In this document: positions 3,916-29,366 of the stretch, one piece after another
How positions within the stretch are numbered: position 1 is the stretch's first letter
Layout: every line of letters starts with the position of its first letter
Origin: a virus
Virus record (IMG/VR): IMGVR_UViG_3300045988_159943
Span: 1-32,308 of that record
Length of the DNA: 32,308 nt
Reading direction: 5' to 3' (one strand)
The notes under the pieces: model-generated
Databases searched by the model: none
Seen by the model: only the letters and a program-made list of their open reading frames with translations
Told to the model about the DNA's origin: nothing
Made by a program: the position numbers and the translations under genes

Positions 3916-3937
<22 letters not shown>
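3728..3937 (+). CDS. hypothetical acidic protein
   Basis: 69-aa ORF, translationally coupled to neighbours. Confidence 0.35.
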
Positions 3938-6299
<2,362 letters not shown>

Positions 6300-6308
6300 T
6301 AACCAAAA

Positions 6309-6346
6309 ATGGCTATGAGTTTTTGTGCAACTTATAGCCATTTTTT
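6309..6346 (+). terminator. rho-independent terminator after ligA
   Basis: 13-bp stem ATGGCTATGAGTT/AACTTATAGCCAT (1 mismatch), 7-nt loop, followed by TTTTTT. Confidence 0.7.
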
Positions 6347-6349
6347 CTA

Positions 6350-6378
6350 TTGATTTTTGTGCAAAAATATGGTAGTAT
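6350..6378 (+). promoter_or_regulatory. sigma-A-like promoter (TTGATT-17-TAGTAT, with TGg extension)
   Basis: -35 TTGATT at 6350-6355, 17-nt spacer, TGgTAGTAT at 6370-6378. Conserved CAATACAAAATTATT motif follows at about +1. Confidence 0.45.
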
Positions 6379-6380
6379 AA

Positions 6381-6395
6381 CAATACAAAATTATT
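6381..6395 (+). promoter_or_regulatory. conserved motif copy 2: CAATACAAAATTATT
   Basis: Exact 15-mer immediately 5' of RBS GGAAGGAG. Confidence 0.5.
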
Positions 6396-6411
6396 GGAAG
6401 GAGTATCATAT

Positions 6412-7302
6412 ATGCGAGTATACAAACATAGTAAATACGACTATGCTACAATTGTAGAAATTCAAAAGGCAGAATTAAAAAAAATTGATATGGTTTTATG
6501 CAAACAACCTAGAGAAACTTTAAAAGCATTTTACGATAGACAAGCGATAAAGCCTAATTTTATTATTAATGGCGGTTTTTTTAATATGAATGATGGCACA
6601 ACTTGCTTTAATCTTGTTGACGAGAATAAAACAATTACAGCCTTAAATTACTACACTCTTGGGATGGGCGTTGTAGATGAAACAAAGTTAATTTATGGAG
6701 ATATAAAAGATAGAACTGATTGGAGAGACTTTGTTTCTGGATATCCGCCTCTTGTTGTTGATGGTAAAGCGTGTAAGATCACATATGCTACAGAATTGGA
6801 TTATAAAGCAAGAAGAAGTATTCTCGGATATAATAACAGTTTTATCTTTTTAATTGCTGTTGAGCTCCCTGGTATGACATTTGAAGAAATGCAATTTTTA
6901 GCACTCACTGTTGGTTGTAAATATGCTATCAATATTGATGGCGGTGGTAGCACTAAGATTCTACAGAATGGTCAGTCGATTACCTCTTCACTTTACAACA
7001 GAGCAGTAGATAATGTAATTGCTATTTATTTAAAGGATAAAGAGGAAGACACTTCTGTAACACAAAAGGTTATCTATCGTGTACAACTTGGAGCATTTGG
7101 AAATAAGGCTAATGCAGAGAATTTACTTGCAAAGATTAAAGTACTTCCTGACACGATTGGTGCTGGCTATAGCAGCGCATATATTCGATTGGTCAATGGG
7201 CTTTATAAAGTTCAAGTAGGGGCATTTAGTGTGAAGGCTAATGCTGACAAGGTTTTATTGGACCTTAAAAGCCAAGGTTATAGTGCATTTATTACTACAT
7301 AA
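6412..7302 (+). CDS. phosphodiester glycosidase (DUF2233/NAGPA-like) with two C-terminal SPOR peptidoglycan-binding domains
   Basis: INIDGGGSTKIL motif typical of the phosphodiester glycosidase family. Two ~70-aa SPOR-like repeats (YRVQLGAFGNKANAENLLAKIK... and YKVQVGAFSVKANADKVLLDLKSQGYSAFI). ATG at 6412 has RBS GGAAGGAG; the ORF track's TTG at 6394 is a less likely start. No signal peptide seen. Confidence 0.6.
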   Translation: MRVYKHSKYDYATIVEIQKAELKKIDMVLCKQPRETLKAFYDRQAIKPNFIINGGFFNMNDGTTCFNLVDENKTITALNYYTLGMGVVDETKLIYGDIKDRTDWRDFVSGYPPLVVDGKACKITYATELDYKARRSILGYNNSFIFLIAVELPGMTFEEMQFLALTVGCKYAINIDGGGSTKILQNGQSITSSLYNRAVDNVIAIYLKDKEEDTSVTQKVIYRVQLGAFGNKANAENLLAKIKVLPDTIGAGYSSAYIRLVNGLYKVQVGAFSVKANADKVLLDLKSQGYSAFITT

Positions 7303-7319: not shown

Positions 7320-8087
7320 ATGAACATTGAAACAATTGCTAACTCTGGACAGTGTTTCAGATTAAATCAAATTGATCCGATACACTACGAACTGGTTGCT
7401 CACGGGGAAGTCCTTGAAATATATGCACCAAAACCAGACCGTTGGTCATGGGTGTCTTATAATGATTGGTCGAAATATTTTAGACTTAATGAAGATTTTA
7501 ATATCAAAAACCCAGATCCCTTTCTCGCAGAAGCTATTAAGCACTCTCCTGGGCTCGTTATTTTGCGACAAGATCCTTGGGAAGTTTTAATTAGTTTTAT
7601 CATCTCTCAGCGCAAGAGTATTCCAGCTATTAAGAATAGCATTGAGCGACTCTGTAAAGCTTATGGAACTCCTATTGATGAAACTCATTATGCTTTTCCC
7701 ACAGCAGAACAATTAATGTTTATGAATCTTGACCGAGATGATTGTGGATTAGGATATAGAAAAGATTATATTTTAAGATTAGCTAGAGATGTAGTTAGTG
7801 GAAATTTCAGCATGAAAGAACTGGTTGCTGCTGATTATGATACTGCGAAAAAGATGCTTTTAAGTATTAAAGGTGTAGGTGAAAAGATTGCAAATTGCGT
7901 ATTACTTTTTGGACTAAGTTTTAACAATGCATTTCCTATTGATGTTCATATGCAAAGAGTTTTAGAAGAACATTATCCCGACGGCTTCCCATATGAAAGA
8001 TATAACGGGCAGCTTGGATTAGTTCAACAATATTTATTTGAATACCAAAGATATTTAACTAAAAATGGAGGCAAAAATCATGAATGA
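7320..8087 (+). CDS. ogg: OGG1-type 8-oxoguanine DNA glycosylase/AP lyase (HhH-GPD superfamily)
   Basis: IKGVGEKIANCVLLFGLSFNNAFPIDVHMQRV aligns with the human OGG1 HhH-GPD active-site segment [27 protein letters not shown], including the catalytic Lys and Asp positions. Confidence 0.7.
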   Translation: MNIETIANSGQCFRLNQIDPIHYELVAHGEVLEIYAPKPDRWSWVSYNDWSKYFRLNEDFNIKNPDPFLAEAIKHSPGLVILRQDPWEVLISFIISQRKSIPAIKNSIERLCKAYGTPIDETHYAFPTAEQLMFMNLDRDDCGLGYRKDYILRLARDVVSGNFSMKELVAADYDTAKKMLLSIKGVGEKIANCVLLFGLSFNNAFPIDVHMQRVLEEHYPDGFPYERYNGQLGLVQQYLFEYQRYLTKNGGKNHE

Positions 8088-8316
8088 AAATGCACAGAAT
8101 GCTTGTTTGACAACAACAATATTAGATGAAGAAACTGGCAAGATGATGTTAACTTATGTGCCCTTGCGCATCACCCAGAGCCTTTTAAATGAGCTCTTGG
8201 ATAACAGTACTTGTGATAACAAAAGAGGTTTCCAGTTTGAATTGCTTATTAGCCCTGAAAAGTATTGGGGAGATATGTGGAAGGGTCTAGAGGATATGTG
8301 TGATGATGACGAGTGA
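8065..8316 (+). CDS. hypothetical protein
   Basis: 83-aa ORF overlapping neighbours by a few codons. Acidic C-terminus. Confidence 0.35.
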   Translation: MEAKIMNENAQNACLTTTILDEETGKMMLTYVPLRITQSLLNELLDNSTCDNKRGFQFELLISPEKYWGDMWKGLEDMCDDDE

Positions 8317-8509
8317 AATAATTACCTGCTTAATGAAAGGCGAAGAGGTAGACCTAGAAGAAGTTGCTTATAGGTTGGGGGAGTTAACTCAAGTTATTAA
8401 TGATATGATGAACGACCATTATACTGACTATCTTGAATATTACGCTGAAAGATGTTGGCAATTGGAAGAAGAGATTACAAAGTTAAAGAAAGGAGGAAGT
8501 AAATCTTGA
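8300..8509 (+). CDS. hypothetical protein
   Basis: 69-aa ORF. Its stop TGA overlaps a TTG (8506) preceded by AGGAGG (8491-8496). Confidence 0.35.
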   Translation: MMMTSEIITCLMKGEEVDLEEVAYRLGELTQVINDMMNDHYTDYLEYYAERCWQLEEEITKLKKGGSKS

Positions 8510-8566
8510 TTTTAACCAAAGGACAGGAAAAAGGATTGAAAATTGCAGTAGCCAGATATAAGTCAC

Positions 8567-9652
8567 ATGAAGCATATACTTGTATTGCTGGCTATGCTTA
8601 AAGCTGGTACTGGTAAAAGTACACTTGCAAAATATATAGTTGAAGCACTCAATATTCCAGACAGCCAAGTCGCTAATATTGCTTATACTGGCAAAGCAAG
8701 TTTGGTTTTAAAAAATAAAGGATTGCCAAATTGTATGACGGCACACAAATTGTTATATTTTGCAAAAGAACTTCCTGATGGAAATTATGAGTTTAAGCCA
8801 AGAAAATCTCTTGAAAATAATTTTAAACTAATTGTTGTTGATGAGGTTTCAATGCTTCCAGAAGATATGTGGTGGTTATTACTTTCCCATGGAGTTCACG
8901 TTATTGCACTTGGAGATCCTGGGCAACTTCCACCAGTTGATGGCACTTCAACAATATTAGATCATCCACATGTTTTTTTAGATGAAATTGTGCGCCAAGC
9001 TTTAGACAATCCCATTATTAAATTGAGCATGGATATTCGAGAAGGCAAGCCGCTCGTTTATGGTGGCCCAAGAGAGGCGAGGATAATGCCATATCATAAA
9101 GTATCAAAAGGTTTACTACTCGGTGCTGATATAGTAATTTGTGGATTAAATGCGACACGACATGCGCTCAATCAAAGAATGAGAAAAATGAAGTGGGAAG
9201 ACGCATATCAAGATACTCCAATAAACGGAGATAAATGTATTTGCTTAAAAAATCGTTGGTCTACATTAAGTAACACAGGAGATAGTTTAATCAATGGGGC
9301 TCTTGGAACTCTAGAAAATATTAAACTTTCAAGTACTAAGAAAATAGAGACAAAAATGACAGCAAATTTTATCTCAGAAACCAATGGTATATTCGATAAG
9401 CTTGATATGGATTATAAGCTTATTACTACCGGGGAACCATTAATCAACAAAGAGAATTTTATGCAGTTCACTAAAAAAGAACGACCTATAGAATTTTCAT
9501 ATGGTTATGCTATAACTTGCCATAAAAGTCAAGGTTCAGAGTTTGACAGAGTTCTCATTTATGATGAACCTTTTGGCGATTGGGAACAAAGAAAGCGTTG
9601 GAGATATACAGCTGTAACTAGGGCAGCAAAACAATTAGTTATAATTATGTAA
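8567..9652 (+). CDS. SF1B DNA helicase (Dda/RecD-like); N-terminal 31 codons are in another frame (8506-8601), giving an apparent +1 frameshift
   Basis: Walker A AGTGKST near the N-terminus and C-terminal CHKSQGSEFDRVLIYD (UvrD_C_2-like). The upstream frame (TTG 8506, RBS AGGAGG) encodes LTKGQEKGLKIAVARYKSHEAYTCIAGYA-stop. This aligns with T4 Dda LTEGQKNAFNIVMKAIKEKKHHVTINGPAGTGKTT up to the P-loop. Confidence 0.7.
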   Translation: MKHILVLLAMLKAGTGKSTLAKYIVEALNIPDSQVANIAYTGKASLVLKNKGLPNCMTAHKLLYFAKELPDGNYEFKPRKSLENNFKLIVVDEVSMLPEDMWWLLLSHGVHVIALGDPGQLPPVDGTSTILDHPHVFLDEIVRQALDNPIIKLSMDIREGKPLVYGGPREARIMPYHKVSKGLLLGADIVICGLNATRHALNQRMRKMKWEDAYQDTPINGDKCICLKNRWSTLSNTGDSLINGALGTLENIKLSSTKKIETKMTANFISETNGIFDKLDMDYKLITTGEPLINKENFMQFTKKERPIEFSYGYAITCHKSQGSEFDRVLIYDEPFGDWEQRKRWRYTAVTRAAKQLVIIM

Positions 9653-9653
9653 G

Positions 9654-9668
9654 CAATACAAAATTATT
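9654..9668 (+). promoter_or_regulatory. conserved motif copy 3: CAATACAAAATTATT
   Basis: Exact 15-mer starting 2 nt after the helicase stop and abutting RBS AGGAGG. Confidence 0.5.
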
Positions 9669-13616: not shown

Positions 13617-13635
13617 AATATTTATCCCTATTCCG

Positions 13636-13664
13636 TTGACAATACAAAATTATTGTGGTATAAT
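13636..13664 (+). promoter_or_regulatory. strong sigma-A promoter with extended -10
   Basis: TTGACA (13636-13641), 17-nt spacer, TGgTATAAT (13656-13664). Conserved CAATACAAAATTATT motif occupies the spacer. Confidence 0.65.
13640..13654 (+). promoter_or_regulatory. conserved motif copy 5: CAATACAAAATTATT
   Basis: Exact 15-mer inside the spacer of the TTGACA/TATAAT promoter. Confidence 0.5.
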
Positions 13665-13696
13665 ACCCAAAGAACACCTGAAAGGAAGTGACATTA

Positions 13697-14050: not shown

Positions 14051-14701
14051 ATGATTGTAACTAAACGTGATGGACGACAAGTTGAGTTTGATAAGCAAAA
14101 AATCAAACTTGCGATTTTAAAGGCCTTTCTTGAAGTAGATGGTGAAGAAACCCCATACGCCAAAGATAAGGCTAGAGATATTGCTAATTATATTGAGGCA
14201 CTTGAACGAGATATGAACGTTGAGGAAATTCAAGATGAAATTGTCAATAAGCTTATGGCAAGTGCGAGAAAAGATGTCGCATCAAGATATGTAGAGTATA
14301 GACATCTGCATAAAATGGCAAGAGAACAGTATAAAGAACTAATGGATGCAGTTAATGAAAAACTATCTGCTTCTAATGTTCAGAATCAAAATGCAAATGT
14401 TGATGAACATAGCTTTGGTGGTCGTATTGGCGAAGCAGCAGATGTCGTCATGAAAAAGATTGCATTAGATTATTGTGTGTCTGAAATGGCAAAGAATAAT
14501 CATTTAAATAATGAAATTTATATTCATGACCTTTCTCATTATGCAGTAGGAGACCACAATTGTCTATCAGTCCCATTTGATGATCTACTTGCAAATGGAT
14601 TTAATACAAGACAGACGGATGTAAGACCTGCTCAGTCTATTAATACAGCATTTCAGCTTGTAGCTGTAATTTTCCAGATTCAATCGTTGCAACAGTTTGG
14701 T
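14051..14701 (+). CDS. nrdD: anaerobic ribonucleoside-triphosphate reductase NrdD, exon 1
   Basis: N-terminal ATP-cone (MIVTKRDGRQVEFDKQKIKLAILKAF). The reading frame ends in a stop two codons after the proposed 5' splice site. Confidence 0.8.
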
Positions 14702-15727
14702 AGATAATACTGCCTGTTAAACCTTTTCGCACTCATCATGCGGGTACAATTTATTGTGCTAACGGGGAAGCCTAAACTTTTATAAGCATGGTAATCCCGT
14801 GGGAAAATAATTGCTTAAAATCAATAATCTCCTTGCAGGAGATGAGTTAATTGATAGTTTATAAAATTACAAATAATATAAATTGCAAAGTATATATTGG
14901 AATTACAACATGCTCATTAGAATATCGGTGGTCAAAGCATATCACAGAGAGCCGTAATGAAAATAATGCAAAACATTTATATAAAGCCATAAGAAAATAT
15001 GGATTAGATAATTTCTCTATTGAGCAAATTGATTCATCGGATGATTTTAAAGAGCTTGGTAGGTTAGAAAGACAATATATTAAACAGTATGATTCTCAAA
15101 ACCCAAACAAAGGATATAATCTCACGGCTGGCGGAGAATCAAATCAATGGGATGCAAATCCTGCATCAAAATTGTCCTATGATGATGTTGTTCAAATTAG
15201 AGAAATATATGCCATGTGTGAATTAAAACTAGAAGAATGTTGGCGACTTTTTAAAGATAAAATATCTTATTCTGGATTTCAAAAAGTATGGAACGGCACA
15301 ACATGGCAAGGAATTATGGATGAGGTATATACCAAAGAGAATATACAAATTCATAGTTCACAAAAATCTAATCCCGGGAGCAAAAACGGTAATGCAAGAA
15401 TGACCGATAATGGTGTTATTGAAGTTCGAAAATATTATGTCGATCATACATTACAAGAAACATATGAAAAATATGGTAAGGCTTATACTAAAGATGGTTT
15501 CAGAGAGACACTCAATAGGACGTATTCTTATTTACCAATTTATCATAAAATGAAAAAATATTGGACTTTAAATGGCGAGATTATTGATATAAACAATTAT
15601 AATCCTGTATCGACTATCCCTGTATCGAGGGAGTAGAATTACTATTGATACGTAATTCGAAATGGGTTTTGCGAGCTTAATGCTCGTTAAGATATAGTCA
15701 GTCCCCATAGAAATATGGGATGAGACG
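14702..15727 (+). mobile_element. group I (IA2-like) self-splicing intron in nrdD carrying a homing endonuclease gene
   Basis: Splits NrdD. Core elements are similar to the T4 td/nrdD introns: CTAACGGGGAAGCCT ... AATCCCGTG (14758-14801) and the S element AAGATATAGTC (15689-15699). P9-like hairpin CCCATAG-AAA-TATGGG (15704-15719). U precedes the proposed 5' splice site (14701) and G precedes the 3' splice site (15727). Boundaries are inferred, not experimentally known. Confidence 0.7.
14851..15636 (+). CDS. GIY-YIG homing endonuclease (intron-encoded)
   Basis: N-terminal IVYKITNNINCKVYIGIT (GIY...YIG), then R and E of the catalytic motif (RWSKHITESRN). TTG start. Its SD AGGAG (14837-14841) lies within a 6-bp hairpin ATCTCC/GGAGAT (14827-14843). 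Confidence 0.8.
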   Translation: MIVYKITNNINCKVYIGITTCSLEYRWSKHITESRNENNAKHLYKAIRKYGLDNFSIEQIDSSDDFKELGRLERQYIKQYDSQNPNKGYNLTAGGESNQWDANPASKLSYDDVVQIREIYAMCELKLEECWRLFKDKISYSGFQKVWNGTTWQGIMDEVYTKENIQIHSSQKSNPGSKNGNARMTDNGVIEVRKYYVDHTLQETYEKYGKAYTKDGFRETLNRTYSYLPIYHKMKKYWTLNGEIIDINNYNPVSTIPVSRE

Positions 15728-17311
15728 GGTGTTTCAGCAACACACTTAGATTGGACGATGGTTCCTTATGTAAGAAAGAGCTTTTATAAGCATTTTAAAG
15801 ATGCAATTAAATATATGGCTGGAATTAGTTTTGAAAAATATGAAGGATCTTTTGAACCTGAAAAACAATCAATTGATGACTTTTTCTATAAGTCCTTTGG
15901 CGACAAAGTATATCAATATGCTCTTGATATGACAGAACGTGAAGCAAAACAAGCAGTTGAAGGAATGTATCATAATCTTAATACACTACAAAGCCGATCT
16001 GGTAATCAGCTTCCATTTAGCTCTGTGAACTACGGTACTTGCACTTTGGCAGAAGGCCGTATGATTATTAAAGCATTACTGAACGCTTCTATCGAAGGCA
16101 CAGGTAGACTACATAAAACCTCTATCTTCCCCTGCGGTATCTTCCAGTGTATGAAGGGAGTTAATAGAATTCCAGGTGACCCTAACTACGACCTTTATCA
16201 ACTTGCTCTGAAGTCTACAGCACAAAGATTGTATCCTAATTATGCAAATGTAGATTGGTCTGGTAATGTTGGATATGATATAAGTGACCCAAGAACATAC
16301 TTCAGCACCATGGGCTGCAGAACCGCAAATGGTTGGGATATTAATGGATTCGGACAACTAAAAGATGGTAGAGGAAATATTTGCCCAACTACAATTATCA
16401 TGCCAACTCTTGCGATGGAAGCCAAAGAATTTGTAGCGAAAAATTCTGAACCTTTCTGTGAGAACTTAGAAGGACTAACAGTAGATAAGTTCTTAGAAAT
16501 TCTTGATATCAAAATTCACGAAGCAAAAGATATGCTTATTGAACGCTTTGATTGGATTTGCTCTCAGAGTCCAGAGTCTGCAAAGTTCATGTATGAGAAT
16601 GGAACAATGAAGGGGTATGACGGCAAAGATATCCGCTCTGCACTAAAGCATGGAACCCTAGCCCTAGGTCAACTCGGCCTTGCTGAAACATTACAGATTC
16701 TAATTGGGTGCGACCATACTACAGAAAAAGGCATGGAGTTAGCAAAGCGCATTGAACAGTTATTCAAAAATAGATGCGCTGAGTTTAAGGAAAAATATAA
16801 ACTCAACTTTGGTGTGTATTATACTCCTGCTGAAAATCTTTGTTATACTGCAATGCAAAAATTTAAAGATAAATATGGTGAGATTCCAAACGTATCTGAC
16901 AAAGATTTCTTTACTAACAGCATCCATGTTCCTGTGTGGAAAGACATTGACCCATTTGAGAAAATTGATATTGAGTCGCAACTAACTGGATACTCTAGCG
17001 CAGGATGCATCACTTATGTTGAACTTGAATCAACTGCTAAACATAACATTGAAGCCCTAGAGACAATTGTTAATTATGCCATGGATCATGATATTCCATA
17101 CTTTGCAATTAATGTACCAAATGATACTTGTATGGATTGTGGTTACTGCGATGAAATCAATGATACATGTCCTATGTGTGGTAGTACTAACATTCAAAGA
17201 TTACGTCGTGTAACGGGATATCTTACCGGAGATTACAAAACTGCATTCAATAAAGGTAAACAACAAGAAACAGAATTGAGAACAAAGCATTCTAAATCTA
17301 CTTGGAGGTGA
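15728..17311 (+). CDS. nrdD: anaerobic ribonucleoside-triphosphate reductase NrdD, exon 2
   Basis: In-frame continuation GVSATHLDWTMVPYV... C-terminal Zn site CMDCGYC...CPMCG and glycyl-radical motif RVTGYLTG. Confidence 0.8.
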   Translation, partial: GVSATHLDWTMVPYVRKSFYKHFKDAIKYMAGISFEKYEGSFEPEKQSIDDFFYKSFGDKVYQYALDMTEREAKQAVEGMYHNLNTLQSRSGNQLPFSSVNYGTCTLAEGRMIIKALLNASIEGTGRLHKTSIFPCGIFQCMKGVNRIPGDPNYDLYQLALKSTAQRLYPNYANVDWSGNVGYDISDPRTYFSTMGCRTANGWDINGFGQLKDGRGNICPTTIIMPTLAMEAKEFVAKNSEPFCENLEGLTVDKFLEILDIKIHEAKDMLIERFDWICSQSPESAKFMYENGTMKGYDGKDIRSALKHGTLALGQLGLAETLQILIGCDHTTEKGMELAKRIEQLFKNRCAEFKEKYKLNFGVYYTPAENLCYTAMQKFKDKYGEIPNVSDKDFFTNSIHVPVWKDIDPFEKIDIESQLTGYSSAGCITYVELESTAKHNIEALETIVNYAMDHDIPYFAINVPNDTCMDCGYCDEINDTCPMCGSTNIQRLRRVTGYLTGDYKTAFNKGKQQETELRTKHSKSTWR

Positions 17312-19312: not shown

Positions 19313-19862
19313 ACCTTTATTTTTATTTGTTGGAAAATCAGCATCTGGGAAAACAACTATTGCAAACATGTTAACCGAAAATGGCTACTCACAAATTGCT
19401 TCATATACAACACGTCCTCCACGTTACAAAGGTGAAAAAGAGCATACGTTTATTTCAGAAGAAGAGTATGACAAACTTGAAAATATTATGGCAGAAACTC
19501 ATTATAATGGCTATCGTTATTGCACGACTTTAGAACAAATTAAAAATGCAGACATTTATGTAGTTGACCCTCCTGGAGTTTCTACTTTGATGGATAACTA
19601 CGATAAAATTGGTCGTTTCGTCTATGCCATTTATTTTGATGCGAATGTTTATAATCGAGTACAACGCATGCTTACTAGAGGAGACAGTGATACTCAAGTT
19701 GTTGGTAGGTTGTTACAAGATGAGCAATATGACTGGCTAGAAACTTTACTAAACATTGATAAAAACAATCGTGGAAAAATGATTATGTATGTAGTTGATG
19801 CCAATCAAGATTTAGAAAATGTATATTATGATGTAAAAAATACTATTAAAAGATACATTTAA
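19287..19862 (+). CDS. P-loop nucleoside/nucleotide kinase (putative dNMP kinase)
   Basis: Walker A VGKSASGKTT at the N-terminus. Size about 185 aa. Start could instead be the ATG at ~19305 (MSKPLF...). Confidence 0.5.
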   Translation: MRTVMTMSKPLFLFVGKSASGKTTIANMLTENGYSQIASYTTRPPRYKGEKEHTFISEEEYDKLENIMAETHYNGYRYCTTLEQIKNADIYVVDPPGVSTLMDNYDKIGRFVYAIYFDANVYNRVQRMLTRGDSDTQVVGRLLQDEQYDWLETLLNIDKNNRGKMIMYVVDANQDLENVYYDVKNTIKRYI

Positions 19863-19869
19863 AAATAAA

Positions 19870-19906
19870 AGGGCAGTGACGGATAATCTCTGTTACTGTC
19901 CTTTTT
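19870..19906 (+). terminator. rho-independent terminator ending the early/nucleotide-metabolism operon
   Basis: Stem GGGCAGTGAC / GTTACTGTCC (two G-U pairs), loop GGATAATCTCT, followed by TTTTTT. Confidence 0.7.
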
Positions 19907-19931
19907 TATATACAAATAGGAGTTGACATAA

Positions 19932-20123
19932 ATGCAAAACAATACACAATTTTATACCGTAACCGACATAAAAAACATCTTGACAATTGGAACAAATAAA
20001 GCGTATAATTTAGTTAATTCGGAAGGCTTCCCAAGTCTTCGTATTGGCAGAAAAATACTTGTCCCAAAAGATGAATTCGAAAAGTGGGTCAAAACATATT
20101 TGTACCACGAATATATATTATAA
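19932..20123 (+). CDS. xis: excisionase/AlpA-like HTH DNA-binding protein
   Basis: 63 aa. YTVTDIKNILTIGTNKAYNLVNSEGFPSLRIGRKILVPKDEFEKWV matches the Xis/MerR-type HTH_17 pattern (...I...P....GR...). Coordinates taken from the ORF track. Confidence 0.6.
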   Translation: MQNNTQFYTVTDIKNILTIGTNKAYNLVNSEGFPSLRIGRKILVPKDEFEKWVKTYLYHEYIL

Positions 20124-20130
20124 ATATAGA

Positions 20131-20153
20131 AGTGGGACAAAAATTGGGACAAT
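20131..20153 (+). repeat. pair of direct repeats (G/T)TGGGACAA: putative integrase arm-type/Xis binding sites, left arm
   Basis: GTGGGACAA (20132-20140) and TTGGGACAA (20144-20152), 12 nt centre to centre. Confidence 0.5.
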
Positions 20154-20221
20154 TTTTAAAGTATAACCTATAAAAGCGCATGAAAACAAGGGAGTAGGAG
20201 CCCCAAATGTATGCCTCCAAA

Positions 20222-20257
20222 ACCATCATTGTGGGTTCGATTCCTACATCCCCTGCC
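20222..20257 (+). other. tRNA 3'-end-like sequence (T-arm, acceptor 3' strand, discriminator, CCA): probable attP core
   Basis: GTGGGTTCGATTCCTAC forms a T stem-loop with the canonical GGTTCGATTCC loop, followed by ATCCCCTGCCA. No complete cloverleaf can be folded upstream, so this is a tRNA fragment, as expected for a phage attP that regenerates a host tRNA 3' end. Confidence 0.55.
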
Positions 20258-20270
20258 AAATAAAAATACT

Positions 20271-20305
20271 CGGGAAGCCTGATAAATCAGGGCTTCCTTT
20301 CTTTT
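20271..20305 (+). terminator. terminator-like hairpin following the tRNA-like segment
   Basis: GGGAAGCCTGA-TAAA-TCAGGGCTTCC (one bulge) followed by TTTCTTTTT. Resembles a host tRNA gene terminator carried within attP. Confidence 0.5.
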
Positions 20306-20318
20306 TGCCATAAATTAT

Positions 20319-20330
20319 CAATACAAAATT
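20319..20330 (+). promoter_or_regulatory. conserved motif copy 8 (CAATACAAAATT, truncated)
   Basis: Upstream of the TGcTATAAT element in front of int. Confidence 0.4.
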
Positions 20331-20342
20331 CGACAAATTATA

Positions 20343-20351
20343 TGCTATAAT
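20343..20351 (+). promoter_or_regulatory. extended -10 element (TGcTATAAT), possible int promoter
   Basis: TGCTATAAT about 68 nt upstream of the int ATG. No good -35. Conserved CAATACAAAATT motif sits around the -35 position (20319-20330). Confidence 0.35.
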
Positions 20352-20383
20352 TTATTAGTTATTATTAAGTATTTTTAATTAAA

Positions 20384-20405
20384 GTGGGACAAAAAAGTGG
20401 GACAA
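20384..20405 (+). repeat. pair of direct repeats GTGGGACAA: putative arm-type sites, right arm
   Basis: GTGGGACAA at 20384-20392 and 20397-20405. The second copy abuts the int RBS AAGGAGG. Confidence 0.5.
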
Positions 20406-20418
20406 AGGAGGATGATGA

Positions 20419-21705
20419 ATGGAAAAGAAAGCATTAAAAAAATTACCTAGAGGGGAGGGATCAATGAGTTATGTAAATCGTAATGGAATAGAATATATTT
20501 GTTATAAAAAAATAATTGGTCATGGCACCAATAAAAAACGTCATTCTGTATATGGACATTCACAACAAGAATGCATAAAACTTATGAAAACTGCAGAAAA
20601 AGAATACAGCAAACAAACTGCTTTATTAAATCCTACACAAGATGATAATGGCAAATACTTATTAAAAACTACTATGAAAGCGTGGATAGACGATAGAAAA
20701 GATAAACTAAAAGCAACAAGCCTTGATACAATCGAATCAACATACACACACCATATAAAAGATAAGCCAATAGGAAATTTGCAATTTTCTAGAGTTACTG
20801 CAGAAGATATAAATAAACACCTTCAAGATTCTAAAAAAGAAGGATATTCTTTATCAACTGTGAAAAAGATTTATAGTTTATGCAATCAATACTTTAACGA
20901 TGTTTATTCTAAAGATCGAGCACATAATCCAATGCTTGAAGTCGAGAGTGTAACAAAAAAAGATTATAATGTACAAATCGAACAAAGCATTTACGATGAA
21001 GACGATGATATTTTTATAGAAACACGAGAGGGGATTAACATCAACACAAGTGCAATTATCCTCAATGATGAAGAAATAACTAGATTTATTAATACTGCAA
21101 GCATGGATTATAAATATGGATATTGTGGATGGAAACATGGGTATGGATTAATTTTTCTTATGTATTCTTTTATGAGAATAGGAGAAGCTATTGCCCTTAA
21201 ATGGAAAGACATTGACTTTAAAAATAAAACAGTTAACATTTATAAAACTGCATCACAAGTAAAAAATCGTGATGGGTCAAAGAAAAAAACTAAATGGATT
21301 ATTACAACAACCAAAACTGACTCTGGTCGTAGATTTAATTTATTATCTGATGCTGCTATGGACGCAATACAAAAGCATTTTGATAGGATATCTAATGGGC
21401 GTAGCTATGAAGAAATGAAAAATCATTATGTGTTTGAAACCAAAAATGGCACGTTCGCCTCTCCATCAAATTTATATCAAAATATTAAATCTATATATAA
21501 GAAAGCGGGTATTAATGAAAAAAAGATTGGATTACATAAATTAAGACACACAGGAATAAGTTACTACATTCGGCATGGAGTTCCTATAGAAATTATATCT
21601 AAAATGGCAGGACATTCGTCCATTGCTGTAACTACAAATATTTATTACGACTTGGTTGAAGACCAATTTAAAGACGCTATAAAAATTATGAATAATATAA
21701 AATAA
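20419..21705 (+). CDS. int: tyrosine site-specific integrase
   Basis: C-terminal catalytic box HKLRHTGISYYIRHGVPIEIISKMAGHSSIAVTTNIY (R...HxxR...Y). N-terminal arm-binding-like domain. 428 aa. Confidence 0.9.
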   Translation: MEKKALKKLPRGEGSMSYVNRNGIEYICYKKIIGHGTNKKRHSVYGHSQQECIKLMKTAEKEYSKQTALLNPTQDDNGKYLLKTTMKAWIDDRKDKLKATSLDTIESTYTHHIKDKPIGNLQFSRVTAEDINKHLQDSKKEGYSLSTVKKIYSLCNQYFNDVYSKDRAHNPMLEVESVTKKDYNVQIEQSIYDEDDDIFIETREGININTSAIILNDEEITRFINTASMDYKYGYCGWKHGYGLIFLMYSFMRIGEAIALKWKDIDFKNKTVNIYKTASQVKNRDGSKKKTKWIITTTKTDSGRRFNLLSDAAMDAIQKHFDRISNGRSYEEMKNHYVFETKNGTFASPSNLYQNIKSIYKKAGINEKKIGLHKLRHTGISYYIRHGVPIEIISKMAGHSSIAVTTNIYYDLVEDQFKDAIKIMNNIK

Positions 21706-22034: not shown

Positions 22035-22194
22035 AATGAAGAAAGAACCAACCAGTACACTTACACTTAGGCTCCCAATATCGAAGAAATTGAGGTTAGA
22101 AATCATTGCAAATAAAGAAGATAGGACATTAAATTCATTAGTTAACAAGATTATTAGCGATTACTTGGAGGGTAACGAAAAGCAAAAAAAATAG
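22035..22194 (+). CDS. ribbon-helix-helix (CopG/Arc-like) regulator; reading frame appears interrupted near 22140
   Basis: MKKEPTSTLTLRLPISKKLRLEIIANKEDRTLNSL (beta strand + helix A) then a stop (22143-22145). Helix B (VNKIISDYLEGNEKQKK) continues in the +1 frame to TAG at 22192-22194. Confidence 0.45.
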
Positions 22195-22218
22195 GGAAGC
22201 ACAATTAAGTGCTTCCCT
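22194..22218. terminator. bidirectional terminator between convergent RHH gene and tail-fiber gene
   Basis: Perfect 9-bp stem GGGAAGCAC/GTGCTTCCC with AATTA loop. Flanked by an A-run upstream and TTTAATTTTT downstream. Overlaps the last codons of the fiber gene. Confidence 0.65.
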
Positions 22219-24295
22219 TTAATTTTTGAATCTCTGCCCTTAGTTCAGAAATTTCATTTTGTAATTTTTGAATCATATAAGTGTTCAATGCAATGAATTC
22301 AGAATACCTTAGTCCATAATCATAAACCGCATGTTTGTTTTCATCTACAACTGTATTGCCATTATCATCAACTCTAACATCTTTACAGAACCCCGCAAAA
22401 TCTTTACCTGATAAACCAAGCGTATGAAGTGATTCTTCAATATCCTGTGCGACAAAACCATAATGTGTTCTATCACTAGTTCCAGATGTCATTTTATATG
22501 TAACTGGTTTTAATTCATTAAATAGTTGCTCTTGAATATCAGACATATCTTCTATATCTTTTTTTTTATTTTTATCTGATGTATCTATACTTCCATTTTC
22601 CGCATAAAGTTGATTCCACCTACGACCACTTGATCCAAGATTAACAATACCACTATTACTCGAATCTGGAACATATACACTAGTGTTATGTATAGCTAGT
22701 CCAGCCTCTGCCCCAGCGGAAGTATCTTGATTAGTTCTGATGTATGCAATATTTACACCACTTGTATTTTGTTCTGTATAAAATGATGCTTTGATACTTT
22801 CACCAACACTAATTTTACCATCAAATTCAGCAGGCCACGCACATTCAAATTTACTTTGTGTTGCGTCATCTACTGTTATTGTAGATAATTTACCAATAGA
22901 TACCCCGTTGTTGTATCTCGCAATATTGATTGGCCTACCGGTAGCTGGCATTGTATAAATACCACTATTAACAGTTGTTCCCACTGCATCAATTACAGTA
23001 AATCTAAACTGATAACTTGTACTTGTTGCAAATGTCATAGTAGATACTGTATCTGTTCCACTTGTAATATCTCCAACCACAGTCCATGAAGTTGAACCCA
23101 ATTTACGATAATACCATTTTAGTGAGCTAATACTATTCTTTCCACTAACGCTTTGTATAGCTGCAGTAATACGTCCTAAAGCATAAGTTCCAGATGCACT
23201 TACTGTCCCATCAGATTCACATCGAGTAACACGTCCACTTGACAATGTTGGCTTCGAATAGCTATATACAGTAATTGTTTTTGTGTCTGCTCCAGATCTC
23301 CCACGAGAATCTTTTACCGTTGCAGTATATTCCAAGCCCGTACCAGATGTATTTAATGTTACTGTTGTACTTGCAGAAGTAGAAGATACGCCAGAGCCAC
23401 TTAAGCTATAAGATGATATAGATGCACCAGAGCCTGCTTTGCCTGTAATAACAAATTTGGCTTTAGAAATACCTTTAAGATATACATTTAAATTATTATT
23501 GTATGTAGGTGTTATTGCCAAAGAAACTGTTGGATTATATATATCTGTATCAGGAACCTTTATTGAAATTGACGCAGTATCAGTTGAACCAATTTTTGTA
23601 CTATAACCACTATCGCTATAAGTATAAAGATAACATTTTAATGTACCAGAACTACTAGAGGGTACCCACGATGCAGGTAATGTAATACTATATAACTTTT
23701 GACTTGTGCTACCAGCTTTACCTAATTCAACAGTTTTCTTCTTTGAACTATCCACATAAAACGCTAACTTGTGATAATAACTACTTACAGTTGGAGTATA
23801 ATAAACTTTAATGGTACTATCAACATTAGCAGAAGAAATTGTTGTTCCGCTGCTATTAGTAATCTTATCAATTTCTGCATTTCTAGGAATAGTTTTTAAT
23901 TTAATGCTAGTAGCAGAAAGTGTAATACTACCAGGGCCCCATCCAGAACAATTTAACAAAGAAGATGTATTACTACAACTAAATGTAATTGTTTTTTCGC
24001 CATTGCTGTCATGTGTAATTGTCTTTGTACCAGAAGCTAATGTAATAGTATATCCAGTGTTACCCTTATCATCAATATTAATTCTTTGCGTCTTAGAATA
24101 TGTCGAACCTGCCATATTGAAACCAACAGTGACAGAGCTAACTGTATCGAAATCGTAAGAATCAGTTAACTGTTGAAGCTTCAAAGCGGCAGTTACGGTG
24201 CTTGTATTTGCTGCGATATCTTGCGTATATGAATATTCAATATATACTTTATACCAATCAGAATGTTGTCCTATCTTACAATTAATCGTTGCCAC
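22205..24295 (-). CDS. tail fiber / receptor-binding protein with C-terminal intramolecular chaperone (peptidase S74) domain
   Basis: C-terminal DTSDKNKKKDIEDM...LKPVTYKM...HYGFVAQDIEESL matches the endosialidase/tail-spike auto-cleaving chaperone domain. N-terminal and central regions are Ser/Thr/Gly-rich beta repeats. Confidence 0.7.
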   Translation of the reverse strand: MATINCKIGQHSDWYKVYIEYSYTQDIAANTSTVTAALKLQQLTDSYDFDTVSSVTVGFNMAGSTYSKTQRINIDDKGNTGYTITLASGTKTITHDSNGEKTITFSCSNTSSLLNCSGWGPGSITLSATSIKLKTIPRNAEIDKITNSSGTTISSANVDSTIKVYYTPTVSSYYHKLAFYVDSSKKKTVELGKAGSTSQKLYSITLPASWVPSSSSGTLKCYLYTYSDSGYSTKIGSTDTASISIKVPDTDIYNPTVSLAITPTYNNNLNVYLKGISKAKFVITGKAGSGASISSYSLSGSGVSSTSASTTVTLNTSGTGLEYTATVKDSRGRSGADTKTITVYSYSKPTLSSGRVTRCESDGTVSASGTYALGRITAAIQSVSGKNSISSLKWYYRKLGSTSWTVVGDITSGTDTVSTMTFATSTSYQFRFTVIDAVGTTVNSGIYTMPATGRPINIARYNNGVSIGKLSTITVDDATQSKFECAWPAEFDGKISVGESIKASFYTEQNTSGVNIAYIRTNQDTSAGAEAGLAIHNTSVYVPDSSNSGIVNLGSSGRRWNQLYAENGSIDTSDKNKKKDIEDMSDIQEQLFNELKPVTYKMTSGTSDRTHYGFVAQDIEESLHTLGLSGKDFAGFCKDVRVDDNGNTVVDENKHAVYDYGLRYSEFIALNTYMIQKLQNEISELRAEIQKLKGST

Positions 24296-24299
24296 TTAA

Positions 24300-27200
24300 T
24301 CAACTCCCTTGTGTCTGAATTAAAATTGAGAAGCTACCATTATTTTCTGCTTGGATAACTAAACTATTATTTGTAGATGCATTATCAACACGAAGTTCTT
24401 TTACTGTTGCTGGGCCATTAACATCAAGTATGCCATCTTCTCCATCAAGACCAGTAATTTCTGCACTTGAAATATAAAGCTTTTTGTCTGAAATATATGC
24501 AACTTCTGCATCTCCAACCAATGGGTCAGTATCCTGTTGCATAAATGACCACCTATCATTTAATAACCTTGTGTAAATTGTACTATTACCATCTTTAATG
24601 ACCAAACCTTTATCGTTACTAAACTCAAAATGTTGATTTAGGTCGCCTTCAATTGAACCCACTCTAGTATTTAGATTTTCATTTTGTTGATCGTATTTGT
24701 CTAATGCACTAATCCAATCAATAGATTTATAAACACCATTGCCATCATTAATAGAACGCAATACAGAGCCGGGTTCAACTAAATCAATCTCTATAGTTCC
24801 AATAATTTCTGCAGAAATAATATAGTCATTACTCACAAGGCCTACAAGGGCATCTTCGTTAGTAACGACATTTTTATTTATCTCTCCAATTAATGTTCCC
24901 GTGGAATCAACCGCCGTACCATCTTGAATATAACCTACAATAGTAAAAGCTTTATTAAAATCTTCATAGTAAATACCAATAGCAGTACCATTTGAATCAA
25001 GAATAAGTTCATCTTCAATTGTACCGATAATATTTCCGTCAGAATCCAATACACTAGTTTTATCATCACTAATAGTGCCCATACTTGTTGGAGCAATGAT
25101 GTCTCCATTACTGTCAACAATATTACCCTGCTCGTCCGTCTGAATGTAATCTCGTTCTCCAACTATCCATATTTCATCAGTTAAATAGTTGCCATGAATC
25201 GGACAAGAAGTATAAACAATATTATCTTCATTTTCTATGTAATCCTGAATATCTTGCGCAGTTAAATTCCCGATTTTGCTATCGCCACCCATTGTGACGT
25301 TGCCAAATTCATCAACCATAAAAGTTCCATTACCAATATTTATTGTGCCACCAACTATTGTTGAACCTTCAATATAACCAGATAATACAGCTTGCGCTAA
25401 TAATCCATAGAATGTTGTGCCATCTATCTCAAATTCTCCAAGACCGGTTTGCGAAGTTTTAAATCCATCTGTTGAAAAAAGAATATTGTTATTGACAATC
25501 CAAGCTTGATAAGGAGATACTTCGCCAGTTTCTTTATTAACTATTTTTGTTAAACGTATTCCACTCTTATCAATAACAACACCTTGATCAGATGAATAAA
25601 GCCCATTTGTTGCATCTAGTAAACCTTGTTGAATCTTTAAATCAGTTTGAGTTGCTAAATCTGCACCTTTATTCCAGTATGAAGCATTACTTGCTACAGA
25701 TTTACCTGCGCTTAATGCTTGAGATAATAAATCTGCATGAATACTGGATGGAGTTTTTATATTGGTCAATTCCCCAAATGAGCATGAAAAATCAGAAAAA
25801 TCGTCAAAATTAATACTAACTTCTAGTAGTCTGGCACGTTTAATATAATCAGGTCTAATAGCTATATTAATTAAATTACCGAGCTGAAATTGATTAACTA
25901 TTGGCTCAAACTCTGAGAGTGCATAAATGTTCGCCATATCCATAGAGAACTCTAGTTTTGGCTCACATAATTTTGACAACTCAATACGTCCACATTCCAA
26001 TAATTCTTTTTCTAGCTTTATGATGATATCACGACTATCTGTTTCAGTAATTAAAAAATTATCGTCGGTATACTCATCTTCTCGCAAAAAAGCGCTCAAA
26101 CGAATTCTTTGTTGTGGAGTAAAATTATTAACAATCAACAAATCTTCTTGGATTTGGGCGTTTCTTGTACTATATATATCACGTTGGTCTTCATATTCTT
26201 GGATTTTATTTTCTCTATCAGTTTTTTCCTTTGTTAATGCATTAAGCAATAAAGTTACTACATAGTACTTTTGATAATATTCATGGCTGGGCTGGTTTGC
26301 ACCAACATCTACATATTGCTGTTGATCACTTTTATATGTAGAAATATATGTCTTTATCATACTAAGACCAATTTGATCAAACATTTCATCTAAGAATGTT
26401 TTTACTGCTGTGTCTTTTGCTTCTGTGGTATTAGCTTTTGATAACGCACTGACAAGAGTGGAAAAAGTATATTTTTCTACAAATGCAAAATGCTCCGCTA
26501 AAGGTCTAAGTTGGGATACATCTTTTGAACTACCAGACATATAATAAACTTGTAAGGCCGATAATAAATTTGCAACCTTATCTGCATTTAAATCATTGCC
26601 CAAAAGTGAATAATAACGTGAAACATTTGCACTGTACTGATCTGGCAATGTAACTTCTTTATAATAGTAATCTGGATCAACACCGCCACGCACATAATAT
26701 GTTCCTACCGTTTGACTATTAACGTTGCTTGCAATAGAATATTTTAATGAAAGCCTATTTTCTTCATATAATATTCTATCATCTAGTTCTAATATTTTGC
26801 TTGCATTTTCTGCGTATTCATTTTGATACCCATTAGACTTCTGAATATAAAGGGTGTATGCATCATATAGTTCTTGCCCCATCCAATCAACAGTATAATA
26901 GTAAGATAAGTCCGTAATATATGGCAATCCCATATTTACTTCTTCAATTCCAAGGTCTTCGGCTCCTCTAACAGTTAATACAGTTTTGATGTCTTCTGCG
27001 CTATAACTAACATTAACTTCTTGTGCTAAATTATCAAATGATATATATACGTCTGTCATCCATTTTGCTTGAGAACCATCCACTACTTCGATGAGTGCAC
27101 CTTTTGCTGGTGCAGTGTTCAACATCAGTATGCCAGTAGTTTTATTATAATTATATCCCGTCGTCTTATAGCTATCAATTGACACAGTTTCGATAGTTTC

Positions 27201-27950: not shown

Positions 27951-27984
27951 ATATTATCACTCCTTTCTCAAAATATTAAAGTTG

Positions 27985-29304
27985 TTATAAATATCTCACT
28001 TCTACTATAGACGCTTGTATGGTCTGGTCTACACTTGGCTTATTACCAATTGCATATACTGTTACAGTGCCTGCATTATTTTCTGTAATCAAAGAAGCAT
28101 CATCTTTTTGCAACATAGCTACTTGTACAGTAGTTGGTTGAAGGTCTATTCTACTTCTTTCTGTAACACCATTAACAGTTACAACTTGTGAATAAGGAGA
28201 TTTTGTCCCCGCCCAATTATCTGCAAGTAATGAAATATAAGTTATCTTTTGCACGTCATCATCATCCTCTTCATTAATATAATCACAACACTGTGGGCTA
28301 TTAAGAATATTTTCAATATCAACTGCACAATCACCAATCTTAATTGGATATCTATACTTAAACGTAATTGTACCCTCACCAGCGCCGTTAACTGCTATTT
28401 TGTTTATGCCCGGTTGCAATCTAGGCCAAACAAAATTAAAATTATCTCCAAATATCTTTCCTGGAATACTAGAAGAAATAAATTGTCCAGAGTTAAATGA
28501 AATTACTTCGCCACCAGATACACCCATAACACTGGTTTCTTCGTTTAATTCTAAATTTTTTATAGTTAATGAACCAAGAGCATCACCACTTTGATTATTA
28601 CTATACTCAACGTCTAGATTGATATATGTATATAGGTCATCAGTTTTATTATCAATTTGCACCATGTTGCCTTGAACTTTATATATAACACCATAATCGG
28701 TAATATCAAATGGTTCTGGCATACCATTGTCTATATACAATACTCCACTATCATCAATGCCGAAATATGGTATAGCTTCATTTTGATAAACCACGCCATT
28801 TTCATCAATTCCAAAGCCATCATTCATAAGATCATATTTAATTTCTTGTATTGCAGAATAAGCCCATGGATTTACACTTGTAAATGTAGCTACAAGACCA
28901 ATTATTTTTGCATCAAGTTTACGCTGTTTTACGTTTGTAATACGACCAAAAAATGAGTATTTAACTTCATCGCCCTCATAAAAATCAAGCCATGAATTTG
29001 TCCTTACCCCGGTTAGCCATTTTAATATATCTCTATTTTCTGCTACAGAAAAATCACTACCATCTGGTTTGATTAAAGTTATATTAATCGTAGCTACAGA
29101 ATCATATCGGGCCCCATAATCAAACTTTTTAGTACCATTATAGTAATCATCCGTAGAGGCTGTCATTGACAAAAATGTATCAACTTCACCATCATCTGGA
29201 GTAAATGTAGTTATAATTAAATGTTTGTCTCTTGCGCTATTTTGTTTCAAATAAGTAAAAGATGAATGGTATGAACTCATAAGATTAGGCTCACTTCCTT
29301 TCAT
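27985..29304 (-). CDS. distal tail protein (Dit)
   Basis: 439 aa, located between TMP and Tal, the conserved siphovirus order TMP-Dit-Tal. Confidence 0.6.
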   Translation of the reverse strand: MKGSEPNLMSSYHSSFTYLKQNSARDKHLIITTFTPDDGEVDTFLSMTASTDDYYNGTKKFDYGARYDSVATINITLIKPDGSDFSVAENRDILKWLTGVRTNSWLDFYEGDEVKYSFFGRITNVKQRKLDAKIIGLVATFTSVNPWAYSAIQEIKYDLMNDGFGIDENGVVYQNEAIPYFGIDDSGVLYIDNGMPEPFDITDYGVIYKVQGNMVQIDNKTDDLYTYINLDVEYSNNQSGDALGSLTIKNLELNEETSVMGVSGGEVISFNSGQFISSSIPGKIFGDNFNFVWPRLQPGINKIAVNGAGEGTITFKYRYPIKIGDCAVDIENILNSPQCCDYINEEDDDDVQKITYISLLADNWAGTKSPYSQVVTVNGVTERSRIDLQPTTVQVAMLQKDDASLITENNAGTVTVYAIGNKPSVDQTIQASIVEVRYL

Positions 29305-29327
29305 ATCTTAAATTGTTTGTATAAATA

Positions 29328-29357: not shown

Positions 29358-29366
29358 TATATTGTT

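Follow-up and report, generated by a model that had tools for sequence, protein, structure and literature searches.

A NAGPA-SPOR protein encoded among phage replication genes is a candidate accessory cell-wall lysin

Introduction

We analysed a 32,308-nucleotide (nt) stretch of viral DNA (IMG/VR record IMGVR_UViG_3300045988_159943, positions 1 to 32,308), hereafter the window, which covers about one quarter of a phage genome whose close relatives lie on contigs of at least 98-128 kb. Our subject is a gene on the + strand (6412-7302, ATG start at 6412) encoding a protein of 296 amino acids (aa), in which a NAGPA/DUF2233-type catalytic domain is joined to a SPOR domain. A previous interpretation made from the letters alone (the sequence-only reading) had raised the idea of an unconventional lysin or an enzyme cleaving wall glycopolymers. 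That idea is backed by the layout of the protein (catalytic domain, linker and wall-binding domain), the identity of its SPOR part, the fusions in which its catalytic module takes part and the linkage to lysis genes in one relative. Most probably the protein is an endolysin-type wall hydrolase, soluble and modular, with an accessory rather than a peptidoglycan-cutting role.

Results

The gene lies in the replication block of the window

The gene belongs to a + strand block (17-21944) devoted to replication and nucleotide metabolism. The first part of this block encodes a RecJ-like nuclease, a homing-endonuclease-like open reading frame (ORF), YqeY, a bactofilin-like ORF, an NAD-dependent ligase and the NAGPA-SPOR protein, and the second part encodes an OGG/HhH-GPD glycosylase, an SF1 helicase, PolIIIα, a split NrdD, NrdG, dUTPase, ThyX, a kinase and a tyrosine integrase. 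A tail block on the - strand (22205-32279), convergent with the replication block, encodes a tail fibre with an S74 chaperone, a 1216-aa minor tail protein, a Dit-like protein and a 970-aa ORF. The gene next to that for the tail fibre (22205-24295, - strand) is the convergent integrase, and no lysis genes stand there. The absence of a lysis cassette by the tail fibre, already remarked upon in the sequence-only reading, holds only for the window, a part of a genome whose relatives fill much longer contigs. No real gene in the 32 kb encodes a transmembrane (TM) segment, which leaves no holin candidate in the window and agrees with the earlier remark that no holin neighbours the gene. Apart from the NAGPA-SPOR protein itself, no ORF of the window has a lysin domain. 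Two antisense ORFs under the gene (6801-6953 and 6279-6425) were rejected as spurious, being short and inside a conserved coding sequence.

Upstream of the gene, a terminator-like hairpin (6305-6345, + strand; stem AAAAATGGCTAT / ATAGCCATTTTT, with a T-run after it) follows the NAD-ligase gene. It is succeeded by what reads as a weak sigma-70-like promoter (6350-6378, + strand), composed of a -35 element TTGATT (6350-6355), a 17-nt spacer and an extended -10 element TGgTAGTAT (6370-6378). A conserved 15-mer, CAATACAAAATTATT (6381-6395, + strand), stands between the -10-like hexamer and the ribosome-binding site, a Shine-Dalgarno sequence GGAAGGAG (6396-6403, + strand) located 8 nt 5' of the ATG. 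Hairpin, promoter-like site and 15-mer are all kept in the relatives L001 (92% protein identity) and L167 (70%). The sequence-only reading had placed the gene in an early region behind its own promoter and a conserved motif. Its location among replication genes and the 15-mer stand, but the promoter-like site scores only 8/12, under the threshold of our promoter scan.

The 15-mer occurs in four exact copies, all on the + strand (2626-2640, 6381-6395, 9654-9668 and 13640-13654), and in inexact + strand copies with 1-3 mismatches at 124, 10258, 14018, 17810, 20319 and 21365. At three or fewer mismatches there were 14 matches against 7.8 expected, a count reached in none of 100 shuffles. Copies sit just 5' of the Shine-Dalgarno sequences of replication-block genes, some of them in 30-nt gaps too short for a promoter and one within the spacer of a perfect TTGACA-N17-TGnTATAAT promoter (13633-13667). 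Rather than part of a promoter, the 15-mer looks like a shared 5' untranslated, operator or processing signal.

Since the downstream gene begins 18 nt past the stop codon with no terminator in the gap, the NAGPA-SPOR gene heads a unit that runs on into repair and replication genes, namely those for the OGG-like glycosylase, the helicase and PolIIIα. The first of these (7320-8087), directly 3' of our gene, combines OGG_N and HhH-GPD domains, has no PHROG match, and is present in L001 and missing from L167. An 8-oxoguanine-glycosylase-like gene is an unusual base-excision-repair gene for a phage.

The catalytic domain has the NAGPA fold and its active-site loop

The Pfam match to PF09992 (NAGPA) spans aa 49-206 (E=5e-17, 63 bits against a cut-off of 25) and covers profile positions 4-169 of 169. 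Combined with an AlphaFold2 model and Foldseek comparisons, it delimits a catalytic domain of aa 1-212 (6412-7047, + strand). The model, built from 46 homologs, had a mean per-residue confidence (pLDDT) of 91.4, with a disordered, flexible linker (aa 213-218; 7048-7065, + strand) whose pLDDT is below 50 and whose length varies across the family. The top Foldseek matches in the PDB were the catalytic domains of vertebrate NAGPA (6PKU, 6PKY, 6U11 and 6PKG; E 7e-11 to 1e-9, TM-score ~0.6), followed by the DUF2233 structure 3OHG (E 1e-8), and NAGPA-fold matches came at a probability of 1.00. The assignment of this family on the strength of an IDGGGS signature, found at aa 175-180, was therefore right.

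Across 46 family members, residues N53, G55, R134, D176-G-G-G-S180, T181, R197 and D200 do not vary. They include the first and third positions of an NGGFF motif (aa 53-57; 6568-6582, + strand) and the whole DGGGS loop (aa 176-180; 6937-6951, + strand), the sugar-phosphate-binding and catalytic motif that corresponds to human D286-S290. In 77 more distant proteins with different architectures, N53, the DGGGS loop and the arginine are likewise unchanged. In human NAGPA the DGGGS loop is invariant, D286 is catalytic and the glycine amides hold the phosphate; R316 stabilises the leaving phosphate and F140 forms the base of the pocket (PMC13474241). Catalysis requires DGGGS, D286 and R316 (PMC13474241). 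Counting along profile alignments equated F140 with F56 and D286 with D176.

The counterpart of R316 is probably the invariant R197 (7000-7002, + strand), judging from its surroundings. It sits in an R-x-V-x-x-V context resembling that of the human residue, which we take to be R-Q-V-S-T-V and which was matched only to the residue numbers of the human study. A sequence search of the C-terminal 42 aa against the PDB for the R316 counterpart gave only a weak alignment to Slr0280.

The likeness to the vertebrate "uncovering enzyme" (6PKU/6PKY/6U11), at 18-20% identity, comprises the three-subdomain fold, NGGFF, the invariant DGGGS loop and, probably, the arginine 3' of it. Unlike that enzyme, the phage protein has no propeptide, EGF stalk or membrane anchor, and the 296-317 dimer loop is shortened in it; whereas vertebrate NAGPA acts on the glycan of lysosomal enzymes, the proposed object here is the bacterial wall. 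BACOVA_00430 (3OHG) and Slr0280 (5H3K) share the fold and a DGGGS-type loop at 13-16% identity; in contrast to our protein, they are secreted or periplasmic proteins of Gram-negative bacteria or cyanobacteria, with unknown substrate and no SPOR domain.

A single SPOR domain resembles those of amidase endolysins

The C-terminal part matches PF05036 (SPOR) over aa 222-295 (7075-7296, + strand; E=7e-16, 58.8 bits against a cut-off of 21). The sequence-only reading had described a double SPOR domain. There are indeed two repeats of ~35 aa, IYRVQLGAFGNKANAE and LYKVQVGAFSVKANAD, each beta-alpha-beta, but they align to the two halves of the SPOR domain of Bacillus subtilis CwlC and together make one domain, as is usual for SPOR, with the RNP-like beta-alpha-beta-beta-alpha-beta fold. 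Foldseek paired it with the SPOR domains of CwlC (1X60, 39% identity), RlpA and FtsN (6I09 and 1UTA). Q225 in beta1 and K266 are invariant in the family and correspond to RlpA Q270 and CwlC K47. A conserved SPOR glutamine and a basic patch bind glycan freed of its peptides, or denuded glycan (PMC6895207).

The SPOR part is 45-56% identical to the SPOR domains of Amidase_2 and Amidase_3 endolysins of phages and prophages. SPOR is a documented wall-binding domain of endolysins (PMC11674121). When the whole protein was searched against cultured phages with tblastn, matches were limited to the SPOR part, and in bacterial genomes only this part was in common, attached there to Amidase_3 or Amidase_2 lysins. 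Proteins of this kind include CwlC (1X60), Geobacillus prophage PlyGspY412, the endolysin of Faecalibacterium phage Lagaffe and many Amidase_3/Amidase_2-SPOR prophage lysins. They share with our protein a C-terminal SPOR domain (39-56% identity), the succession of catalytic domain, linker and wall-binding domain, and the lack of a signal peptide; their catalytic domain is an N-acetylmuramoyl-L-alanine amidase, whereas ours has NAGPA in its place. Neither a signal peptide nor a TM segment was found in the NAGPA-SPOR protein (maximal 19-residue Kyte-Doolittle mean 1.23, N-terminus at most 0.25), in line with what had been noticed from the sequence. The protein therefore has the layout of an endolysin.

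The NAGPA module recurs in cell-wall lysins

An exhaustive hidden Markov model search with a NAGPA-only profile returned 2,904 representatives at E<=1e-3, 131 of them at E<=1e-30. We scanned with Pfam the 149 nearest representatives of the module, taken from a set of 50%-identity representatives. Their wall-binding partners were SPOR (41), SH3_3 (32), SLH (18), PG_binding_1 (14), PG_binding_3 (11), SH3_4 (10) and LysM (8), and their hydrolase partners were Amidase_2 (16), Amidase_3 (8), Peptidase_M15_3 (4), M23 (2), CHAP (2), GH25 (1) and NlpC/P60 (1). The closest modules came from NAGPA-Amidase_2 (P0144, E=2e-94), NAGPA-M23, NAGPA-Amidase_2-SPOR and NAGPA-GH25 proteins; a CHAP-NAGPA-SH3 architecture was also present. 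Fusions with Amidase_2/3, M23, CHAP, GH25 and M15 mean that the catalytic module is common to recognised lysins. Read from domain content, such a pattern marks a catalytic module that circulates in the pool from which endolysins and autolysins are shuffled. The multi-domain lysins (CHAP-NAGPA-SH3_3, NAGPA-Amidase_2(-SPOR), NAGPA-M23 and NAGPA-GH25) belong to the same NAGPA subfamily and draw on the same recurring wall binders; they are bicatalytic, whereas in our protein NAGPA is the lone catalytic domain.

Viral entries of this fold in BFVD are named "phosphodiester glycosidase", "sporulation related domain", "PlyB-like endolysin", "cell wall hydrolase" and "CHAP domain protein", and the full-length UniProt/BFVD matches are A0A8S5Q173 ("Sporulation related domain", 297 aa) and A0A8S5PPV0 (316 aa), both unstudied. 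CHAP-NAGPA-SH3_3 figures among the gut-phage endolysins of a 2026 survey (PMC13284279), and NAGPA-like predicted depolymerases occur in Curtobacterium prophages (PMC9862828). The protein type was thus already in public databases, and NAGPA was known as part of multi-domain gut-phage lysins. What is new relative to the literature searched is NAGPA as the lone catalytic domain with SPOR, its restriction to large, often TAG-recoded gut phages, and its placement in the replication block. Literature searches found no biochemical study of a phage or endolysin phosphodiester glycosidase, DUF2233, NAGPA or yomE.

Gene neighbourhoods vary, with lysis genes adjacent in one lineage

In L001 and L167 the gene order is ligase, small ORF, NAGPA-SPOR, (OGG), helicase and PolIIIα. 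More distant members have small ORFs and genes of metabolism around them (Metallophos, HU, FolD), one lies at the end of a replication module just 5' of terS and a portal gene on a contig of ~43 kb, and others lie in poorly annotated recoded regions.

One locus, L022 on a 127.7-kb IMG/VR contig, has the order PhoH, NAGPA-SPOR, Amidase_2, a 124-aa two-TM protein, UDG, RNase H, GyrB, GyrA and ligase. Its Amidase_2 protein (263 aa; Pfam 3e-16) matches phrog_20388, "endolysin", at 4e-76. From its sequence the two-TM protein looks like a holin, and the trio looks like an unfused form of the NAGPA-Amidase_2-SPOR proteins. This order implies that lysis genes can lie within the DNA-metabolism region of these large phages. 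A phmmer search of all ORFs at 25 family loci for relatives of the L022 amidase and holin-like protein, or of the amidase domains of SPOR lysins, returned L022 alone, and hence the linkage to a holin or amidase is not general. By analogy with the L022 lineage, our phage may carry a conventional endolysin and holin elsewhere.

Through a more distant NAGPA module (P0179), and by that route only, the search also reached cultured phages in which NAGPA genes lie in tail or adsorption modules. SPβ yomE (L173, NC_001884, 8653-10587) is 3' of yomI-H-G-F and 5' of yomD, blyA and the holins. In a Kurthia podophage of the Rountreeviridae (L174, ON637248), the NAGPA gene (7479-9095) is between collar and tail genes. 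Such proteins, among them SPβ YomE (644 aa), MP1_13 of Kurthia phage vb_KgiM_P1 and those of Staphylococcus phage vB_SscM-1 and Bacillus phage VMY22, share with ours a NAGPA-family domain in a phage of Bacillota, at 16-30% identity. They differ from it in being large, encoded among tail and collar genes, without SPOR and presumably virion-borne as depolymerases or receptor binders. Their placement fits a wall-glycopolymer substrate. One minor teichoic acid of B. subtilis is poly(Glc-GalNAc-1-P), and it would make an obvious candidate for the YomE substrate.

The family is confined to large phages, many of them recoded

A word-indexed search found 743 homologs, and the best 120 of the 743 were 282-304 aa long, all NAGPA+SPOR and none named. 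Full-length homologs came from IMG/VR contigs of 31-210 kb and ENA contigs of 43-197 kb. The "genome" collection held three full-length matches only, on two phage-like contigs of metagenome-assembled genomes (151-164 kb) and a 1.9-kb fragment. The family is confined to phage contigs of ~30-210 kb, many of them TAG-recoded.

Of 22 related loci, 15 carry one to four in-frame TAG codons in the gene. These fall at positions that are Gln or Glu in the window protein and the family, including the nearly invariant Q161, and we infer that the phages concerned read TAG as Gln (L004-L017, L022, L087 and L089). The window phage uses the standard code; its 29 genes end in 17 TAA, 11 TGA and 1 TAG. Borges et al. 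reportedly describe a path on which TAG depletion precedes recoding, and the scarce TAG stops of the window phage fit it. No tRNA gene was found in the window.

By DnaE, the closest cultured relative is Clostridium phage Amboise of [C.] innocuum (46% identity). This relation and the relatives of the SPOR domain point, at the level of sequence, to a host among the gut Bacillota, resolved no further.

Other features of the window

The nrdD gene (14051-17311) is split by an intron-like insertion of ~1 kb with a GIY-YIG endonuclease ORF (14851-15636). In L001 (17031-20891) the gene is interrupted a second time, by an insertion that carries an HNH ORF, and that of L167 (10603-13890) is split at a different point. 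Rfam returned no hit of any kind, a group I intron included, either at gathering thresholds on the window or at E<=1 on 14.6-20.4 kb.

The region 19862-20419, 5' of the 428-aa tyrosine integrase (20419-21705), holds a fragment resembling a tRNA 3' end, GGGTTCGATTCCTACATCCCCTGCCA (20233-20258), a possible attP core if the phage integrates at a tRNA gene. Neither ARAGORN nor Rfam called a tRNA in this region. Repeated GTGGGACAA(A) boxes lie by the integrase at 20132 and 20384. Integrase and tRNA-like fragment suggest a large temperate phage.

Between the RecJ-like gene and a 122-aa ORF is a 375-aa HNH/homing-endonuclease-like ORF (1492-2619). At the same spot L001 (4840-6107) has a LemA gene and a two-TM gene instead, and from this comparison the interval appears to be a swap hotspot. 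The bactofilin-like ORF (3916-4356, 146 aa) has a sub-threshold Pfam match to bactofilin (23.3 bits, cut-off 27.9) and a good one to phrog_3163 (1e-23), of unknown function. Finally, where the integrase block and the tail-fibre gene converge, the gap between them contains a small + strand ORF (22036-22194), MKKEPTSTLTLRLPISKKLRLEIIANKEDRTLNSLVNKIISDYLEGNEKQKK, which by eye resembles a ribbon-helix-helix (CopG/Arc) regulator.

Discussion

How the protein may act

Taking the protein as a probable modular wall hydrolase, we considered what such an enzyme could do. Its phosphate-binding loop is a hallmark of enzymes that split sugar-1-phosphodiesters at C1-O. Gram-positive walls have such bonds in the linkage unit of teichoic acids and secondary polymers, GlcNAc-1-P-6-MurNAc, as well as in those teichoic acids that are poly(sugar-1-phosphate). 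We see about an even chance that the protein is an accessory lysin which depends on a holin and cleaves sugar-1-phosphate linkages, thereby detaching wall glycopolymers from their anchor or breaking them down. Transcribed with the replication genes from the weak promoter 3' of the ligase terminator, it would accumulate in the cytoplasm and gain access to the wall only once a holin, encoded elsewhere, permeabilises the membrane. That a cytoplasmic protein keeps a conserved glycan-binding face implies that it meets its ligand only after the membrane is breached. The SPOR domain would then dock on denuded glycan, be it septal peptidoglycan or strands from which an amidase endolysin has removed the peptides, and the NAGPA domain would act on a sugar-1-phosphodiester, splitting its C1-O bond. 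The enzyme might attack the HexNAc-1-P-6-MurNAc linkage unit, by which teichoic acids or secondary wall polysaccharides are anchored, or else the backbone of poly(sugar-1-phosphate) polymers. The pairing with amidases and the preference of SPOR for amidase-denuded strands suggest an order of events, in which peptides are removed, SPOR docks and NAGPA detaches polymers. Polymer removal might aid wall breakdown, save progeny phage from being trapped on debris by destroying the receptors there, or both.

Several observations weigh against this proposal. In every sampled lineage but L022, the neighbours of the gene are replication, nucleotide-metabolism or small "early" genes, and no holin or other lysin adjoins it; the window has neither a holin nor a second lysin. 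Because the window is part of a genome, the choice between an accessory and a sole lysin draws on relatives only. By alignment, the catalytic and phosphate-binding core is intact and the elements of sugar specificity are divergent. In human NAGPA the N-acetyl group is read by E226/T227 and the phosphate is contacted by T260 (PMC13474241). The E226/T227 loop is an insertion without counterpart in the phage family, and T260 aligns with V150. The missing insertion and the valine mean that the sugar may not be GlcNAc, and specificity for GlcNAc is not established. Literature searches also found no substrate shown for any bacterial or phage NAGPA-family protein, so the vertebrate enzyme is the only source for the chemistry. 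The main weak points are therefore the missing biochemical precedent, the divergent sugar recognition, the persistent early-region location and the partial genome.

The location is weak counter-evidence; even clear NAGPA-Amidase_2 and NAGPA-GH25 fusions come without flanking holins. Beside the genes for two of these (L171 and L172) we found no holins, only small zinc-ribbon-like ORFs without convincing TM segments. Likewise, the genes for the T7 gp3.5 amidase and the T4 e lysozyme stand among early or middle genes, apart from that for the holin, and the enzymes stay in the cytoplasm, doing no harm, until the membrane is breached. Their likeness to our protein is one of gene position only, as folds and chemistry are unrelated. 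In-frame TAG codons imply that the homologs concerned can be translated only after the code switch. As a marker of late expression this is weak evidence, and we gave it less weight because UDG, RNase H and PhoH of L022 also carry TAG.

Alternative explanations

The strict retention of the phosphate-binding DGGGS loop and arginine argues for a phosphodiester-linked substrate, and this makes it unlikely that the protein is the main or only endolysin, with a NAGPA fold repurposed to cut glycan strands in the manner of a glucosaminidase or muramidase and SPOR as its wall binder. Such a role would agree with the monocatalytic plan typical of Gram-positive endolysins and with a 32-kb window free of other lysins, and a SPOR domain on the glycan backbone would place the active site by glycosidic bonds. 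However, repeated fusion or adjacency to Amidase_2, M23 and GH25 suggests complementary rather than redundant activity, and about three quarters of the genome lie outside the window.

An early role in the cytoplasm, where the protein would hydrolyse precursors that contain GlcNAc-1-P (UDP-GlcNAc, or the undecaprenyl-PP-GlcNAc used in teichoic-acid synthesis) and shut down host wall synthesis, would account for the missing export signal and for consistent placement and co-transcription with replication and nucleotide-metabolism genes in very different phages. Vertebrate NAGPA cleaves UDP-GlcNAc in vitro. Yet the SPOR ligand is missing in the cytoplasm while the glycan-binding residues are invariant, the partner domains of the module are all extracellular wall binders or wall hydrolases, and the need of recoded relatives for TAG suppression argues against a very early function. 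We consider this role improbable.

We likewise see little chance that the protein takes no part in lysis and, released at lysis or exported by an unrecognised route, strips the glycopolymer receptor from the lysing cell and its neighbours, preventing loss of progeny on debris or superinfection. The fusions to amidases and peptidases point to lysis, and there is neither an export signal nor a tie to exclusion systems. In its favour, the protein is soluble and wall-targeted, and NAGPA proteins in the tail modules of cultured phages link the fold to receptor polymers. This explanation overlaps the accessory-lysin proposal, from which it differs in purpose alone. The suggestions of an ectolysin, superinfection exclusion or host takeover in the sequence-only reading need export or a cytoplasmic target, and nothing points to either. 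A virion-associated depolymerase, for which the SPβ and Kurthia tail-module proteins offer precedent, is very improbable for a protein of only 296 aa without a structural or attachment domain, encoded far from the tail genes in the opposite strand block and bearing a SPOR anchor typical of soluble lysins.

Implications

Bacterial and phage NAGPA/DUF2233 members number in the thousands (see the 2,904 representatives above), without known substrate. A small two-domain protein with an intact core and a well-understood targeting domain is a convenient entry point to NAGPA substrates, as it should express easily and its likely substrate, glycopolymer anchored to peptidoglycan, can be prepared from host sacculi. 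Beyond the single protein, we tentatively suggest that NAGPA could constitute a distinct, unrecognised class of lysin in Bacillota phages, a "de-anchoring" glycosidase guided by SPOR. It would cut the HexNAc-1-phosphate bond of teichoic acids or secondary polysaccharides to MurNAc, or poly(sugar-1-phosphate) backbones, in a two-enzyme lysis where a partner amidase first strips peptides and the polymers are removed second. If polymer detachment proves false, the protein would be one more unusual lysin architecture. If it proves true, it would supply a new catalytic activity for the design of enzybiotics against gut Bacillota, explain the frequent pairing of NAGPA with amidases, and indicate what SPβ YomE and tail proteins like it do.

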